This document shows positions 14,566 to 49,238 of a stretch of 64,000 bases of DNA, one piece after another. The stretch comes from an uncultured Deferribacteres bacterium (GTDB lineage Bacteria; Zhuqueibacterota; Zhuqueibacteria; Zhuqueibacterales; Geothermadaptataceae), in assembly GCA_964014485.1 (NCBI GenBank), contig CAXHAT010000007.1:11928-75927 (forward strand), in the 5' to 3' direction. Within the stretch, counting starts at the first letter, position 1. Every line of letters starts with the position of its first letter. The position numbers were made by a program, and so were the translations under genes. The notes below the pieces were generated by a model, which worked only from the letters and a program-made list of their open reading frames with translations, made no database searches and had not been told where the DNA came from.

Positions 14566-14609
14566 TAGTGTCGGGGGCGCGATTTGCTGGATTTCCGGCT
14601 GTTTAGTTA

Positions 14610-15061
14610 CTGATGTTACGCGCGCCTCGTTTGGCGTGCGTGATCAAAGCCCGTAGGCAACTATTGATTCTCATTAGCTCCGTTCTTCAGAGCGGAGATA
14701 TTTGAGGACGGCTGTCCCTTGTCCCTCTCTTCCGCCGCGTCAGCGCGGCGGAAGAGAAGGAAGTGGGCGTTCTGCGCTTCACCGGGCTGAAGCCTAATGT
14801 CACTAACTTTTTGTGATTTTGAACTTAAACAAGTCTTGATAATGGTCACCACAGGGCAAGCTGAAGCTTGAACTACAAACGACAGTGCTTCTCTTACGCT
14901 CAGAGTAGAAGGATGTACGGTGGTTTGTAGTTCAAACTTTAGTTTGTTTGAGCGTAACCAAAGCAAAAAGTTAGTGACATTGGGCTGAAGCCCGGCGCTA
15001 ATGAGACAAGATTTGCCCCGAGACTTAGGATATGCGTTGCCGCGCGTAACATCAGTATCAG
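14610..15061. mobile_element. MITE-like element, shell B, with CTCATTAGC-type REP doublet and a nested insertion
   Basis: Perfect 15-bp TIR CTGATGTTACGCGCG / CGCGCGTAACATCAG plus a 6-bp terminal duplication. 7-bp flanking direct repeat TTAGTTA at 14603-14609 and 15062-15068. Homologous to 48911-49194. Confidence 0.82.
14795..14982. mobile_element. Nested MITE, shell C, carrying a GTAGTTCAA REP doublet
   Basis: TIR TAATGTCACTAACTTTTTG / CAAAAAGTTAGTGACATTG (18/19 match). 10-bp TSD GGCTGAAGCC at 14785-14794 and 14983-14992. Confidence 0.87.
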
Positions 15062-15065
15062 TTAG

Positions 15066-16913
15066 TTATCGGGACGAAGGTCTCAAAACGGCAAGTTGCA
15101 ATGCAGGCACGGTGATGACGCATTTGCCTGATTCAACGCTGAAGGTCTCGCCTGAAATCAAATCTTCGAAGGCAGTCGTTCCCTCCGCGGCATCGATTTC
15201 GATGCTTTGGGCGTCGTTGTTGTTGATGATCACGAACCGCTCTTCACCGGCGAGCGTTCTTTTGTAACCGACAATCTTACGCTCATTGTCGATTTTGAAA
15301 AACGCCAACTCACCGACGGAAAAAACGCGGTCTGATTTTCGAATTGCGATCAGTTTTTTGTACCAATCGAACAAGTCCTGATTGAATTCAACCGTATCGC
15401 GCGGGCGCTGCTTGCCTTGCGGATGCGTCGTTTCATCGTCGTACTCGAATTCCGGCCAAACCATCGGCTTGCGACAGTCCGGGTCGTCGCCGCCCCACAT
15501 GCCGGCTTCGTCGCCGTAATAAACCATCGGCGCGCCGGGCATGGTCATTTGAATGCCGACGATCAACTTGTGCTTTTGCACTTCTTCGGCGTTTGGCTTG
15601 CGAACGTCGTAATTGTTCTGCGGCTCTGGCTTGGCGTCATGATCATACCAGCGATCCGGATTGACGACTTGCGAATTAACGCGGTCAACGTCGTGGCTGG
15701 CCATGAGATTTTGCAGGACGTGGTAATTTTCGGAGTGATAATCGGCGCGGATTTGCCGCATTTTGTCTGCGAAAGTTTGCGCGGAGATTTGCGTTTTTTG
15801 ATCGATGACAAATTGCTTGACCGCCGCCGCGAAACGATAATTCATCACGGCGTCATAAGCGCGCCCGTCCAGCCACGGCGCGGCGTTGAACATCTTGTTT
15901 TTGGGCCAATCTTCCCACCACAACTCGCCAGTGATATAGGCGTCGGGATTGATCTCCTTGACCCAGCCCCTGAATTTGTGCCAAAACTTAAGTTCGACCA
16001 TTTCCGAAACGTCCAGCCGCCAGCCGTCAATGCCGTCCGATGGATCGCCGTCGCCGTTTGGATCCATCCAGCGTTTTAAAATGTTACGGACGTGCTCTTG
16101 AAAAGCCGGGACAAAACCGTTTTCGTTTTCACGAATTTCAGGCAAAGTGCGCACGCCGAACCAGCCTTCGTAATCGAACTCGCTTGTATCGCTAGTGGCG
16201 GGATCATCCCAGGCTTTGACCGTAAACCAGTCTTTGTATTTTGAATTCTGCTGGTTTTCGACCAAGTCCTGAAACGCCCAAAAAGTGGAGCCGACGTGGT
16301 TCCAGACGCCGTCGATGATAACGCGGATGCCGCGCTTGTGACATTCGTCCAGAAGTTTGAGAAAAAGCTTGTCCGCCGCCGTCCATTGCCAAGTCGCCGG
16401 ATCAGCCGGGTCTTCCTGCTCCCAAAGCGCGCGGTCTTTTTCCGGCTCCGGGCCAAAATTGTTGTCAATATGACGATAAAGCGAAGCGTCGTATTTGTGC
16501 AGCGAAGGTGATTCGAAAAGCGGGTTAAAGTAGATCCCCGTGACGCCCAACTCTTGCAGATAATCAAGCTTGTCCAGAACCCCCTGAAGATCGCCGCCGT
16601 ATCGACGATGACCGGATTCCCAGTAGAAGCCGCGACCGGTGACATTTTCCCACGGCTGCAATTTATACCAGTCAGAAGTCCAGGGATGAACCTGCCAATC
16701 TTCGCTGGGCGGAAAATCGGGCCACGAGCCTTTCATTTCTCTGGTCGTCGGATCGTTGCTCGGATCGCCGTTGTGAAAGCGTTCCGGGAAAATCTGGTAC
16801 CAAACAACCTCTTTGGCCCACTGCGGCACGCGATCAGGCGCTTCTGCTTCCTGGGAATTTTGACAACCTAAAAAACCTGCTAAAATCAGCAAAAAACAAA
16901 AACGCCTGTTCAT
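15066..16913 (-). CDS. GH13 alpha-amylase family glycosidase (neopullulanase/cyclomaltodextrinase-like), lipoprotein
   Basis: WYQIFPERF, YGGDLQG, DGVWNH, IDGWRLDV, GELW, ASHD and YYGDEAG; lipobox FLGC. Confidence 0.93.
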   Translation of the reverse strand: MNRRFCFLLILAGFLGCQNSQEAEAPDRVPQWAKEVVWYQIFPERFHNGDPSNDPTTREMKGSWPDFPPSEDWQVHPWTSDWYKLQPWENVTGRGFYWESGHRRYGGDLQGVLDKLDYLQELGVTGIYFNPLFESPSLHKYDASLYRHIDNNFGPEPEKDRALWEQEDPADPATWQWTAADKLFLKLLDECHKRGIRVIIDGVWNHVGSTFWAFQDLVENQQNSKYKDWFTVKAWDDPATSDTSEFDYEGWFGVRTLPEIRENENGFVPAFQEHVRNILKRWMDPNGDGDPSDGIDGWRLDVSEMVELKFWHKFRGWVKEINPDAYITGELWWEDWPKNKMFNAAPWLDGRAYDAVMNYRFAAAVKQFVIDQKTQISAQTFADKMRQIRADYHSENYHVLQNLMASHDVDRVNSQVVNPDRWYDHDAKPEPQNNYDVRKPNAEEVQKHKLIVGIQMTMPGAPMVYYGDEAGMWGGDDPDCRKPMVWPEFEYDDETTHPQGKQRPRDTVEFNQDLFDWYKKLIAIRKSDRVFSVGELAFFKIDNERKIVGYKRTLAGEERFVIINNNDAQSIEIDAAEGTTAFEDLISGETFSVESGKCVITVPALQLAVLRPSSR

Positions 16914-16922
16914 CTTTCATCC

Positions 16923-18515
16923 CTAATTTTGGTCTACCACTACGAATTCGATTCTACGATTTCTGCGCCTGCCTTCGCGTGTGGAGTTGGGCGCTACCGG
17001 GTTGCGCGGGCCAAAGCCTTCCGATCTGATTCGGCTTGGTTCTATGCCGCGCTCGGCGAGGAAAAACTTCACGGCGTCGGCGCGATCTTGCGACAGTCGC
17101 ATGTTTAATTGCAGACTGCCGGTGTTGTCGGTGTAGCCGTGAATGGCGACGCGCACTTCCGGATTCTGCACCAGCGTGTAATACGCCTGGTCGAGAATTC
17201 TCGCTGACGACGGATCAATTTCCGCGCTGCCGGTGCGAAAAGTCACGCCGTCGAGGATGATGCGTTTGTTTTCTTTGATGTCTAAAACAGGCACGTCGTC
17301 ATCAGCCAACAATGGATTTGAGCCGCGCAGAACTTCCGTCCCGTCGTCGATAGAGCCGCCGTCAGTGTCGTTTTTAAGCGGATCGGTTTTGTGCTGATTG
17401 ACTTCTTCACCGTCTTTCAAGCCGTCCTTGTCGCTGTCACGCTCGAGGGGATTGGTTTTATAACGATTGATTTCATCGGCGTCGTTTAGGCCGTCATTAT
17501 CGGTGTCGGCTTTGCGGGGATGCGTTTTATGAATTTTGATTTCGTCGCCGTCATTGAGGCCGTCTTCGTCTGAGTCGGCTTTGGTCGGGTAGGTGCGCTG
17601 GCGCAGTTCTTCCAAATCATCCAGGCCGTCGCTGTCAGTATCGGCGGACATGGGGTCGGTCTTGGAGCGATTGACCTCAAGGCCGTCCTTAATTTTGTCG
17701 CCGTCTGAGTCGGCCTTTTTCGGATCGGTGCGATATTTTTGAATTTCTTCACCGTCTAAAAGTTCGTCACGGTCCGAGTCGGCCAAAAGCGGGTTCGTTT
17801 TGTGAATGAGTACTTCTTCGCCGTCGTTCAAGCCGTCATCATCGGTGTCGGCCAGCTTGGGATTCGTGCCGTAGCGTTTTTCGTCTTTGGTAAAAAGTCC
17901 GTCTCCGTCAATGTCTCGTTTTTTGCGGAATGTGAAAGTCAAACCGGCGGAGGCGGTGAAAAAATGGTCGTCCTTTGGAAAGACTTCGGTGGCGTCGTAG
18001 AGGTCGTTGAAAGCAAAGTGATAATAAGCCCTGCCGTCAAAAGAAACGACGCTGGAAAACCGAATGCTGATTCCGCCGCCAACCGGCGCCGTCACGAAGT
18101 TTTTGCTTACGTCGAGATTGGGATCAAAATTGACGTTATTGTCGTTGCGCTTAATGTCATAGGTGAAGTATCGTCCCCCTGCGGCAAGGTAGGGTCGGAA
18201 TATTTCCGGGCCGATAATCGCAAAGCGCATGGTCAAGCCAACGCCGTAAAGTCGGGTCAAAAATCGCCGGTCGCCGGTTCGCGCCGCAACTTCGCCTGTG
18301 TTGAAGGAAGGTTCGATGGAAAAGCGGCTGGAAAGAAAATGTTCGAAAAAAAACGTGCCGTAGGGTCGGGGAAGGGGGGCTTTGAAATCATCGCCTTCGT
18401 AATGCGTGCCGCCGGCCTTGAAACCAAAAGACGTCGCTCCTCGCAATCCTTGCGCCGACGCTCCCGTGGAAAGCAGCAGAAGAATGACGAATCCCCGCCC
18501 GATTCGTTTGTTCAT
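16923..18515 (-). CDS. OmpA-family protein: N-terminal beta-barrel, nine Asp-rich Ca-binding repeats, OmpA-like peptidoglycan-binding domain
   Basis: Nine roughly 23-aa DxDxDGLxDxxE..TxP repeats; GYTDNTGS..NMRLSQDRA and RNRRIEF. Confidence 0.92.
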   Translation of the reverse strand: MNKRIGRGFVILLLLSTGASAQGLRGATSFGFKAGGTHYEGDDFKAPLPRPYGTFFFEHFLSSRFSIEPSFNTGEVAARTGDRRFLTRLYGVGLTMRFAIIGPEIFRPYLAAGGRYFTYDIKRNDNNVNFDPNLDVSKNFVTAPVGGGISIRFSSVVSFDGRAYYHFAFNDLYDATEVFPKDDHFFTASAGLTFTFRKKRDIDGDGLFTKDEKRYGTNPKLADTDDDGLNDGEEVLIHKTNPLLADSDRDELLDGEEIQKYRTDPKKADSDGDKIKDGLEVNRSKTDPMSADTDSDGLDDLEELRQRTYPTKADSDEDGLNDGDEIKIHKTHPRKADTDNDGLNDADEINRYKTNPLERDSDKDGLKDGEEVNQHKTDPLKNDTDGGSIDDGTEVLRGSNPLLADDDVPVLDIKENKRIILDGVTFRTGSAEIDPSSARILDQAYYTLVQNPEVRVAIHGYTDNTGSLQLNMRLSQDRADAVKFFLAERGIEPSRIRSEGFGPRNPVAPNSTREGRRRNRRIEFVVVDQN

Positions 18516-29091: not shown

Positions 29092-29301
29092 ATGCTCATC
29101 AATCTATTTTTTAAAAACTAACATTTCTCACTTCGTTTTAGATGCTATAAACTTCTATTTGTAATAACTTTAGACTCAGGCGTTCAGTGATAATCTTCGA
29201 ACAATGCTTGAGCGTGACCCTGGTTTCTGTTTTTCATTCTTTGCCTGAAAAACTATGAATTAGCCTCAATTTGAAGTGAGAAATGTTAGTTAAAAAGATG
29301 T

Positions 29302-29490
29302 TCTTTCTCAACCTTTTGCCAGGACGACGCAAGACAAACAAACTGAAGTTTGAACTACAAACGACAGTGCATCCTTCGACTCCAAATGTAAAGCAAGCAC
29401 TGTGGTTTGTAGTTCAAGCTTTAGCTTGCTTTTGCTGGAGCCGCCGTCTATACCTTTTGAAATCAAAACCACGAAAAGTTTATGACTTTG
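29302..29490. mobile_element. Degenerate inverted copy of the shell C element
   Basis: REP doublet at 29339-29362 and 29405-29428. The right end AAATCAAAACCACGAAAAGTTTATGACTTTG resembles the reverse complement of the 14795 end. The left end is eroded. Confidence 0.65.
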
Positions 29491-29522
29491 CACTTCTCGG
29501 TAATAACTTCGAGAACAATTGC

Positions 29523-42344: not shown

Positions 42345-42535
42345 TACTATAACGTTAAGTTAGCCTCAAAAACTGGCTGATTTCCATTCAGGAGCGCTTC
42401 AAAAGCAGCCTGAAGGCTGAACTACAAACGACTGTGCTTCCCTTACGCTTCAGAATTGGCAGAACGCATTGTCGTTTGTAGTTCAAGCTTAGCTTGTTTT
42501 GCTAAACGTTTCGAGGCGGACTTAACGTTGTAGTA
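42345..42535. mobile_element. MITE-like element, shell D, carrying the same GTAGTTCA REP doublet as shell C
   Basis: 27-bp TIR TACTATAACGTTAAGTTAGCCTCAAAA (23/27 match). REP arms at 42406-42429 and 42474-42496. The spacer is homologous to 14881-14922. Confidence 0.8.
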
Positions 42536-44333: not shown

Positions 44334-44518
44334 GCTGCCTGACGCTTTTTTGCGAACTCGTGCTAAGTCCCATTGTGTCATTCTGAAAGAATCTTTGTTA
44401 TCGCCCAGTACGGATTGTGCTCAAAGTTCAAGGGTGAGACTAAAAAGGATGCTTGCTGCATGACAATTCCGGCCTTTTTCGCCAGCTTTAGAAGCCTATA
44501 CAAAAAATGTCAGGTAGT
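44334..44518. mobile_element. MITE-like element, shell A, with TGTCAT-type REP doublet
   Basis: Ends GCTGCCTGACGCTTTTT / AAAAAATGTCAGGTAGT; cargo TGTCATTCTGAAAGAATCT..GATGCTTGCTGCATGACA; homologous to 45410-45608. Confidence 0.75.
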
Positions 44519-44549
44519 GAAATTTTTTATGAGGTGGAGGTTTAATTAC

Positions 44550-45281
44550 ATGAAAAAGTTACTGCTGTTTTTTACTGGAGCGCTTCTTGTGGCCGCTCCC
44601 GCTTTGTCGCAAGACGTCGACGATATTATCAAAAAGCACATTGAAGCCTTGGGCGGCGCGGAAAAACTCGCCGGAATCAAAACGATCAAGATTTCCGGCA
44701 ATATGACGATGGCCATGATGGGGCTGGAAGGCCAAATCAGCAGAACCGTCATGCGCCCGAACATGGTTCGCATGGAAATTGACGTCATGGGGCAAACCAT
44801 CGTCCAGGCTTTTGACGGCGAAGAGGCTTGGCAAATTATGCCGTTTATGGGCAACCCGAATCCGGATAAAATGCCGGAAGAGCAAGCCAAGCTGATGACG
44901 CGCGACGCCGATCTGGACGGGCCGCTGGTTGACTATAAGAAAAAAGGCCACAAAGTTGAATTATTAGGCGAAGATGATTTTGAAGGCACCAAAGTTTACA
45001 AGCTCAAGGTCATGCTCAAGAACGGCGCAGAGTATTTGACGTTTATTGACGCCGAACATCATCTGGAATTGAAGCAAATCACCAAAGTCAAATCGCAGCA
45101 GGGCGGCGAGGTTGAAGCAACGGCGGTTTTCGGTGATTTCAAGCCGGTGAACGGCGTAATGATGCCGCACGCTATTACGCTCACCGACCCGATGAACGGC
45201 TCAATCGAAGTCACGTTTTCCAATGTTGAAGTCAACGGCGAGGTTGATGAATCAAAATTCAAGAAGCCCGCTGGAGAATAA
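44550..45281 (+). CDS. Secreted LolA-fold-like protein, paralogue 3
   Basis: ATG at 44550 after GGAGG; VDDIIKKHIEALGGAEKL, RPNMVRME and QAFDGEEAW. Confidence 0.7.
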   Translation: MKKLLLFFTGALLVAAPALSQDVDDIIKKHIEALGGAEKLAGIKTIKISGNMTMAMMGLEGQISRTVMRPNMVRMEIDVMGQTIVQAFDGEEAWQIMPFMGNPNPDKMPEEQAKLMTRDADLDGPLVDYKKKGHKVELLGEDDFEGTKVYKLKVMLKNGAEYLTFIDAEHHLELKQITKVKSQQGGEVEATAVFGDFKPVNGVMMPHAITLTDPMNGSIEVTFSNVEVNGEVDESKFKKPAGE

Positions 45282-45409
45282 GCCGTTATTTTTGTTTAAG
45301 CTTTACCTAACAACCGTCCAGTTTGTCATGCTGAAAGCATTTTTTTTGCTATCAACGTACGACCTTCGCTCATTACTTGTAATTGCAAAAGATTCTTGGG
45401 GAATGATTC

Positions 45410-45608
45410 TCTATCTGACGCCTTTTTGTAAACTGCATTTTCGAGTCGTCGAAAAGCCCCGTTTTGTCATTCTGAAAGAATCTTTGTTATCGCCCAGTAC
45501 AGAGCATGCTCAAAAGTTCATGGGTCAGGTCAAAAAAGATGCTTCCAGCATGACAATACCGGCCTTTTTCACCAATTTTAGAAGCCTAAACAAAAAGTGT
45601 CGGGTAGT
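45410..45608. mobile_element. MITE-like element, shell A, with TGTCAT-type REP doublet; a degenerate inverted doublet lies just upstream (about 45326-45406)
   Basis: Ends TCTATCTGACGCCTTTT / AAAAAGTGTCGGGTAGT; shares TGTCATTCTGAAAGAATCTTTGTTATCGCCCAGTAC with the 44.3-kb copy. Confidence 0.75.
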
Positions 45609-45725
45609 GAAGGGGAATGACAAACCGACGCCGAACATTTGTGACTTAAAAGCAAGGGAGAGACGAACTTTTCGTTTCTCCCTTTTTCGTACCGGATTGT
45701 TTAAAATATTTTGAGGAGTGGAGAA

Positions 45726-48910: not shown

Positions 48911-49194
48911 TTACTTTTATGCACGCATCGTTTGACACGCGCGATCAGAGTCCGAGGGCAACTTTTGATTCTCATTAGCTGCGCGCTTCAGCGCGTAGGA
49001 ATGAGTGCAAATTCATCCCCCCATTTCCTCCCGCCGAGTTAACTCGGCGGGAGGAAAAGAAGAGCGCCCGACCAAGTCCACGCGCTGAAGCGCGCGGCTA
49101 ATGAGACGCCCGGACAGTCAGCGCTGAAGCGCGGCGTTAATGAGACGGCTTTTGTCTCGGGACTCAGGATGTGCGTTGCCGTGCGTAACATCCG
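48911..49194. mobile_element. MITE-like element, shell B, copy without the nested insertion
   Basis: Colinear with 14610-15061. Right TIR GTGCGTAACATCCG is followed by TTACTTA; left end TTACTT has a short deletion in the TIR. Perfect 34-bp central palindrome at 49024-49057. Confidence 0.78.
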
Positions 49195-49238
49195 TTACTT
49201 AAAAATAAAGAGCTTATAACTCTCTTGATTCGTTTTAA

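Follow-up and report, generated by a model that had tools for sequence, protein, structure and literature searches.

For transposable elements of the DDE type, palindromic target models have reportedly been published. Among the described systems, subgroup IS4 of the IS4 family of insertion sequences (IS) generates target duplications of 10-13 bp, and some of its members have strongly conserved target arms (De Palmenaer, Siguier and Mahillon 2008, PMC2266710). In Sinorhizobium meliloti, nine of nine copies of the IS4-family element ISRm22 reside in repetitive extragenic palindromes (REPs), at the axis of the palindromic consensus (Tobes and Pareja 2006, PMC1525189). REP doublets forming hairpins (REPINs), which go together with REP-associated tyrosine transposases (RAYTs), are also cited as IS targets in the literature on these systems (Bertels and Rainey, 10.1101/2021.07.10.451892; Di Nocera et al. 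2013, PMC3733652). We analysed a stretch of 64,000 nt (the window) from contig CAXHAT010000007.1 of assembly GCA_964014485.1, the genome of an uncultured Deferribacteres bacterium (8.4 Mb, 465 contigs, 97% complete), in which a small element of 188 bp, shell C, interrupts a REP hairpin inside another MITE (a miniature transposable element with inverted repeats), the host. A preliminary description of the window had read this locus as a MITE inserted into the hairpin of a second MITE. The nested insertion was confirmed as real, the interpretation was correct, and the inner element is now tied to a transposase.

The inverted ends of shell C match over positions 2-19 and differ at position 1 (T/C). 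The 10-mer GGCTGAAGCC directly borders the element on both sides (Table 1) and represents the exact direct target duplication that had been claimed. We rejected the 10-mer as a piece of an extended inverted repeat because its centre is direct; an inverted copy would have the centre TC and not GA. An exact 10-bp direct repeat at the spacing of shell C occurred at 86 of 8,306,551 genome positions. The 10-mer is the core of the interrupted hairpin, which has 3 more pairs on each side. Judging from sequence comparison, we give a probability of about 80% that the inner element is a MITE of subgroup IS4 moved in trans by the transposase of a 1.5-kb IS, which would read half-sites and cut with an elastic stagger of 10-12 bp. 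Shared ends, a transposase with the DDE and YREK residues, target duplications and their centring, insertion in both orientations, empty host siblings and recent spread were all observed, and from these we infer the mobilisation in trans and the half-site reading.

The 16-base end of shell C had 31 matches in the genome with at most 2 mismatches, and 14 of them made 7 pairs, namely six MITEs of 187-197 bp and one IS of 1528 bp (C25:31405-32932). This IS has landed in a different copy of the host, at the same hairpin, and 9 of the 10 bases of its target duplication agree. Between its shell C ends it encodes the transposase that the preliminary description had anticipated, a DDE enzyme (Pfam PF01609, DDE_Tnp_1) that scored 145.5 bits against the IS4-family model NF033592 of NCBIfam (cut-off 115) and so bore out the proposed family. 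The triad D139, D215 and E325 has spacers of 75 and 109, within D(60-110)D(100-150)E, and is nearly invariant in the alignment; the Y(2)R(3)E(6)K motif is present as Y318-R321-E325-K332. A frameshift near codon 365 divides the open reading frame (ORF) into two; the 173 homologues of the transposase (E 1e-30) are mostly single ORFs of about 458-470 amino acids.

The subgroup IS4 end pattern -AATR--------WTW was found as YAATG, eight bases and TTT, with AAC for AAT at one end of the C25 element. The transposase-bearing elements measured 1528 bp (this genome, G000), 1547 bp (G154) and 1528 bp (G156), within the 1400-1650 bp of the subgroup, and the duplications of 10-12 bp across 66 sites lie within its range of 10-13 bp. 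By ends, size, motif and duplication length, the family appears to fit subgroup IS4 as listed in Table 1 of PMC2266710. Shell C itself has the features of a type II MITE; it is 188 bp long and non-coding, and only 17-21 terminal bases are common to it and the C25 IS. BLAST of this IS at E 1e-3 returned only itself, and a single-protein scan of genome contigs gave 3 distant loci (28-33%), two of them partial and none with a usable target pair. A profile search of the PDB gave no transposase match (best E 0.61). An AlphaFold model of homologue P0002, calculated with no alignment, had a mean predicted local distance difference test value of 35 and was not used. The IS4-family gene on contig C388 was rejected as partner of shell C, as that contig has no matching ends. 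Apart from the C25 gene, this one (C388:2120-3490; 198 bits against NF033592) is the sole IS4-family gene in the genome; it is unrelated and is followed by two hairpin repeats.

Hairpin-centred duplications were also present at the other copies, as had been predicted; all 7 pairs showed 10 or 11 bp with 0-2 mismatches. Two extra copies have one decayed end, one on C127, with an exact 10-bp duplication, and one on C333. The MITE copies on C208 and C148 are identical at 187 of 187 positions and occupy different sites. The C333 insert is identical to the window insert at 179 of 180 positions in hosts of 95% identity, and its orientation is opposite. Because near-identical inserts are found in diverged hosts, in opposite orientations and at unrelated sites, the inserts are younger than the divergence of the hosts and arrived separately.

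Some other loci of the genome carry incomplete forms of these elements. The sibling of the window composite at C333:2556-2739 (L003) has an IS4 end truncated at a TTAG microhomology, beyond which a full hairpin follows; a template switch, a conversion or an assembly join may account for this. At C201:8900 and C44:19221 (L002, L009), a lone IS4 end is still attached to the host MITE's right half and everything else is gone; the element may have caused adjacent deletions or rearrangements there. A decayed relative of shell C with the same doublet, one worn IS4-type end and no clear duplication lies in the window at 29253-29513 (C7:41180-41440).

A search of 166 further genomes from the phylum (E 1e-30) found the C25-type transposase in two, with 55% identity and the same ends in both. 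The transposase of G154 is intact (468 amino acids), and its element has an exact 11-bp duplication in a GTAG-tagged REP hairpin; in G156, the two flanks of the transposase-bearing element do not match. The exact shell C end was found in 13 of the 166 genomes, 12 of them from one sister family, and the reversed control in none. We used 90 of the 97 end matches of the relatives (the 7 left out are all from G166) together with 121 metagenome stretches, which yielded 85 end pairs and 119 single ends. The single ends, many of which are chance matches in unrelated AT-rich contigs, were excluded from the counts. Together with the 7 pairs of this genome there were 92 pairs, and 66 of these had a duplication with no more than 2 mismatches (46 exact). 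Its length was 10 bp at 6 sites, all from this genome, 11 bp at 54 and 12 bp at 6. When the sites were rebuilt, 53 of the 66 were hairpins, and the duplication was centred on the axis in 52 of the 53, with even and odd loops alike. The usual target had 4 paired bases on either side of a spacer that was 2, 3 or 4 bases long. Since lengths of 10 and 11 bp occur together in this genome and lengths of 11 and 12 bp together in G154, the duplication length is not an enzyme constant. The 10 bp that had been assumed for all copies holds for the window copy; family-wide, the length is 10-12 bp and follows the target.

At eight loci of the relatives (L033, L048, L052, L055, L074, L196, L197 and L219), both flanks are REP half-sites yet belong to different variants, as would be expected if copies had recombined, and these loci were excluded from the duplication count. 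In G154, tandem or stacked IS4-ended MITEs between REP units (L203, G154:C22:1-900; L204, G154:C23) form repeat-insert-repeat arrays. On two unrelated metagenome contigs (L086, L079), the same ends target and carry another hairpin family with a GGTC..GACC core, which suggests that the IS4-ended clade adapts to local REP families.

In the mechanism that we propose, a transposase dimer would read two symmetric half-sites, roughly C-R/G-N-C-W (slash, cut). The strands would be cut four bases outward of the palindrome centre on each side, and a spacer of 2-4 bases would be tolerated, so that duplications of 10, 11 or 12 bp would result. The chemistry of IS4-family transposases such as those of Tn5 and IS10 is cut-and-paste via hairpin intermediates, and the same chemistry would apply here. 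REP hairpins would be the commonest good matches to the motif in intergenic DNA. In this genome, the hairpin multiplied by the IS701-type MITE family makes up about half of the matching sites, so that the IS4 element would often be nested in such a MITE. At the window locus, the host MITE entered at the stop codon of the amylase gene, the host copies then diverged, and the inner MITE inserted later. Each time the shell moved, the RAYT-associated REP doublet inside it would have been copied as well.

Site choice was modelled with the 59 sites from outside this genome, using as background 800 kb from two relatives, of which a rough mask left 76,791 bases not in long ORFs; cross-validation was six-fold, in random folds. 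The cross-validated enrichment per site was 7.72 +/- 0.40 nats for the symmetric half-site sequence, 5.55 +/- 0.45 nats for the pairing count only and 7.56 +/- 0.44 nats for both. Pairing changed the sequence model by -0.16 +/- 0.12 nats and was better in 33 of 59 sites, while sequence added 2.01 +/- 0.34 nats to the pairing model and was better in 53 of 59 sites. The half-site consensus has C at -2, a purine at -1, G at +1 and C at +3. Site choice is accounted for by this symmetric sequence motif, and hairpin shape was not shown to be required. The targeting of REPs proposed in the preliminary description was correct as far as the hairpin-centred sites are concerned.

Several points weigh against our reading. 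The model takes no account of selection against insertions into intergenic DNA that has a function, and the sites are related to one another. The sequence-only model under-predicted pairing at +2 (0.70 vs 0.85 observed), and in the joint fit the pairing term kept a positive value (0.60). When trained on the relatives, a length-neutral model predicted 14, 79 and 8% for 10, 11 and 12 bp in the relatives, where 0, 53 and 6 of the 59 sites were seen, and 30, 31 and 39% in this genome, where 6, 1 and 0 were seen. From these mispredictions the enzymes probably differ in preferred stagger or half-site too, and each enzyme probably has its own preferred stagger as well. Furthermore, 26 of the 92 pairs were not used, 4 because they lie at a contig edge and 22 for want of a clean duplication. 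The sole cognate transposase of the assembly is frameshifted, and an intact copy may be unassembled.

The alternative that fares best keeps the same element and enzyme and supposes that what the transposase reads is shape, that of an extruded hairpin or cruciform, and that it makes its cuts four pairs below each loop; the consensus would then merely mirror the abundant REP families. The centring of 52 of the 53 hairpin sites whatever the loop parity speaks for it, as do the pairing of 0.85 at +2 vs the 0.39 expected for independent halves, and the variation of the outer arm sequence between this genome and the relatives with pairing kept. We consider it unlikely all the same, given that in cross-validation pairing adds nothing to sequence while sequence adds 2.0 +/- 0.3 nats to pairing at 53 of 59 sites, and that 13 of the 66 sites have no hairpin, most of them retaining G-N-C at both cuts. 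Moreover, this genome offers thousands of other well-paired intergenic positions (3186 at 10-bp spacing, of which 87 have the motif), and hairpins of other families are not used as targets.

For the 12-bp end of the host, CTGATGTTACGC, the genome has 351 perfect matches and 620 with one mismatch; there were 164 end pairs, 67 with a 7-bp and 19 with an 8-bp duplication. Exact copies of this end surround a transposase above the cut-off of NF049921 in G097 (L238, one full locus). A second locus (L239) has one host-type end with 2 mismatches, and 4 weaker NF049921 hits show no such ends; in this assembly no NF049921 transposase was found. The 4-bp duplication of classical IS701 elements was not seen in the host family, and because of its duplications of 7-8 bp we classed the host as having NF049921-type ends and not as classical IS701. 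A pattern scan of viral contigs for the host ends gave 8 loci. Six of the nine two-ended IS4 elements of the genome lie 72-74 bp away from an IS701-type end. Among 116 genome sites that fit the own-genome motif, 62 are the host hairpin near such an end, a comparison that also counts against us to the extent that the motif was derived from the very sites compared with it. With 6 of 9 elements nested and 62 of 116 sites available, nesting in the IS701-type MITE is about as frequent as the availability of the hairpin predicts.

We regard it as very unlikely that the composite is one unit, which originated once and was then spread by an IS701-type transposase, or that its inner part was moved by a RAYT. 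The inserts of the window and of C333 are near-identical and their hosts belong to one small subfamily, as a single unit would imply; however, the hosts of the nested copies differ by 5-32% and these two inserts by 0.6%, orientations differ, and identical inserts are found at unrelated sites. A joint duplication of the composite was rejected for the near-identity of the inserts in diverged hosts and their opposite orientations. A RAYT as the mover might be suspected from the RAYT-associated cargo and from the cut of the C333 insert at the TTAG microhomology, but the 10-12 bp duplications and the ends shared with an IS4 transposase gene are hallmarks of DDE enzymes. No IS200/IS605-type enzyme is known to make duplications of 10-12 bp.

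The host was rebuilt in silico by taking out the insert and one 10-bp duplicate. BLAST of the resulting 248 bp gave 140 matches, 49 of them full-length siblings, and the 34-nt rebuilt junction occurs in the genome once exactly and 6 times with one mismatch. The best empty host, C203:2039-2279, has the junction unchanged and 92% identity counting gaps (229 of 240 aligned positions). Excision restores the hairpin, as the preliminary description had stated. The copy at 48911-49194, named there as the match, is homologous; because it is more diverged and has a different doubled hairpin, it is a weak witness for the empty site and was rejected in favour of C203. The existence of empty siblings upheld the proposed order, with the host first and the inner MITE later. 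The limits of 14603-15068 given for the composite take in the 7-bp duplications of the host and a local repeat, and the host proper is smaller (Table 1).

The left junction of host and insert is bridged by one public contig (X1 record 2, 14625-14884), and one public contig (X2 record 11) runs 30 bases beyond the right junction with no differences; none of the public contigs, which come from three runs of one study and may include the source sample, spans the whole composite stretch. That the composite is an assembly chimera joining repeat copies could be suspected from a metagenome assembly of 465 contigs and from the lack of a spanning contig, but it is hardly credible in view of the exact duplication of a non-palindromic 10-mer, the intact 7-bp duplication of the host, the contigs bridging the junctions and the like architecture at other sites and in other genomes.

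Table 1. Features of the nested locus, its convergent neighbour and the diverged host relative, in window coordinates.
Feature	Position	Strand	Basis
Left 7-bp target duplication of host MITE, TTAGTTA	14603-14609		sequence; 7-8 bp duplications in 86/164 family end pairs
Host MITE, 248 bp minus insert, ends CTGATGTTACGC, IS701-type	14610-15055		49 full-length siblings; same ends bound NF049921 transposase in G097
Host REP unit 1, TCTCATTAG tag plus hairpin	14669-14697	+	sequence; inverted partner of interrupted unit
GC-rich hairpin at host centre	14727-14756		sequence
Interrupted REP hairpin, left half including left 10-bp duplicate (14785-14794)	14782-14794		sequence
Inner MITE (shell C), probable IS4-subgroup ends YAATGTCACTAACTTTT, no transposase	14795-14982		about 17-21 terminal bases shared with C25 IS
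Inner MITE cargo, inverted doublet of GTAG-tagged REP hairpins (REPIN-like)	14856-14946		family flanks two RAYT genes
Right 10-bp duplicate (14983-14992), right arm and tag of interrupted REP unit	14983-15006		sequence
6-bp local repeat at host right end	15056-15061		sequence
Right 7-bp duplicate of host, TTAGTTA, including alpha-amylase stop codon	15062-15068		sequence
Alpha-amylase gene, convergent	15066-16913	-	ORF
Host-family member, diverged, uninterrupted, with variant doubled hairpin	48911-49198		alignment

The composite sits between a cyclase-family gene and the convergent alpha-amylase gene. A 101-codon ORF at 14661-14966 has no Pfam match and was rejected as a gene. The Rfam search gave nothing at gathering score, with 3 weak matches to microRNA hairpins of 22-26 bits vs cut-offs of 97-98. 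Elsewhere in the window, five 62-nt repeats with a spacing of 69 nt (17398-17870) lie within the minus-strand ORF 16923-18515 and probably represent a protein repeat. A palindromic repeat of 150 bp occurs twice (44365-44521 and 45454-45611) and overlaps the predicted ORFs 44373-45281, for a LolA-like protein, and 45223-45714.

The cargo of shell C consists of two inverted GTAG-tagged REP hairpins of a family that flanks RAYT genes, as in a REPIN, and the folding of the whole inner element had a z value of -6.9. The doublet was found on both sides of two Y1 genes (C64:29299 and C76:24971); with NF047646, the model for RAYTs (cut-off 80), these genes reached 86.3 and 79.6 bits. Of the cargo family's 70 loci, 15 show an IS4 end on one side or both, a third shell encloses 6, and 4 flank the RAYT genes; about 21 of the 70 are within DDE-type ends. 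The C98 copy is inserted in a hairpin of shell C's own cargo family. In the relatives, 59 IS4-ended MITEs fell into 13 interior clusters; among the clustered elements one is a deletion derivative of the IS, and in one interior cluster 3 members match repeats that adjoin a different Y1 gene of this genome. The matching-end transposase, the duplications and the REP-doublet cargo corroborated the earlier view that a REP-carrying shell is moved by real DDE-type transposition. A shell may first acquire its doublet when a REPIN is inserted into a short pair of ends.

The third MITE shell, with the ends TAYYAYAACGTTAAGT, lies in the window at 42345-42535 (C7:54272-54462) and also on C86, C140, C19, C61 and C403, and it carries the doublet of shell C. 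Its duplications are of 4 bp, CTAG in two copies, and its ends resemble the classical IS701 pattern as given in Table 1 of PMC2266710. Six Y1 (IS200/RAYT-like) genes on C361, C5, C36, C64, C241 and C76 (L014-L020) each adjoin a different hairpin repeat family, and a seventh (C53) is a fragment.

A bolder reading, which we put forward tentatively and would not yet favour, is that DDE-type MITE ends may be general vehicles for REPINs and that the shells feed one another. The IS701-type shell would multiply a hairpin, the IS4 shell would land there carrying a REPIN that is itself a landing site, and the third shell would carry the same REPIN. REPINs might then spread in part, and perhaps cross lineages, without a RAYT, and the IS4 stagger would be set by the spacing of the half-sites. 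In the open-access literature we found no description of DDE MITEs carrying REPINs or of a duplication length following half-site spacing.

The event in the window is a fresh example of the known habit of insertion sequences to favour palindromic repeats. Taken alone, one nested insertion is of minor importance, as IS4 elements that seek REPs are already known and target availability accounts for the nesting. The 66 natural target sites, with a duplication length that tracks palindromic spacing, provide a test of the 10-13 bp stagger of subgroup IS4, for which an intact relative of 468 amino acids is at hand. The hitchhiking of REPINs in DDE shells is the more novel aspect. As the copies show, RAYT-associated REP doublets can be multiplied as DDE cargo, which would bias estimates of REPIN duplication that assume the RAYT to be the sole motor. 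If DDE shells indeed act as a second motor, REPIN families would spread partly without their RAYT, perhaps between lineages.

Compared with the members of subgroup IS4 described in PMC2266710, the present clade is unnamed and includes many MITEs that keep just the ends and carry REP doublets; the main text of that paper does not use the word 'MITE', and its Figure 3 or supplements may show similar targets. The nearest named transposase found is that of ISAcma16 from Acaryochloris marina, with 30% identity over 357 residues. ISAcma16 has similar ends (CAATGGCACTGACTT) and an 11-bp duplication in the one copy examined; unlike the shell C family this copy is not in a hairpin, and the element is a distant relative only. 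The likeness to ISRm22 as described in PMC1525189 lies in the insertion of an IS4-family element at the axis of a REP palindrome. However, ISRm22 belongs to subgroup IS4Sa and has 6-bp duplications, whereas the elements described here fit subgroup IS4, duplicate 10-12 bp and are mostly MITEs. The host MITE has its exact CTGATGTTACGC end in common with the G097 transposase locus of the IS701-family NF049921 elements, and its duplications are of 7 bp vs 4 bp for classical IS701 (PMC2266710, Table 1). As in type II MITEs (Minnick 2024, PMC10969869), similarity to the autonomous IS is limited to the terminal repeats; in contrast to those, the interior here is a RAYT-associated REP doublet, and the main text of that review contains neither 'nested' nor 'IS4'. 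Like the REPIN-RAYT systems of 10.1101/2021.07.10.451892 and PMC3733652, the cargo is an inverted GTAG-tagged doublet found on both sides of RAYT genes. As far as their accounts of REPINs go, these papers keep REPINs and MITEs as separate classes, whereas in the genome studied here about 21 of the 70 REPIN-like loci lie within the ends of DDE-type MITEs.

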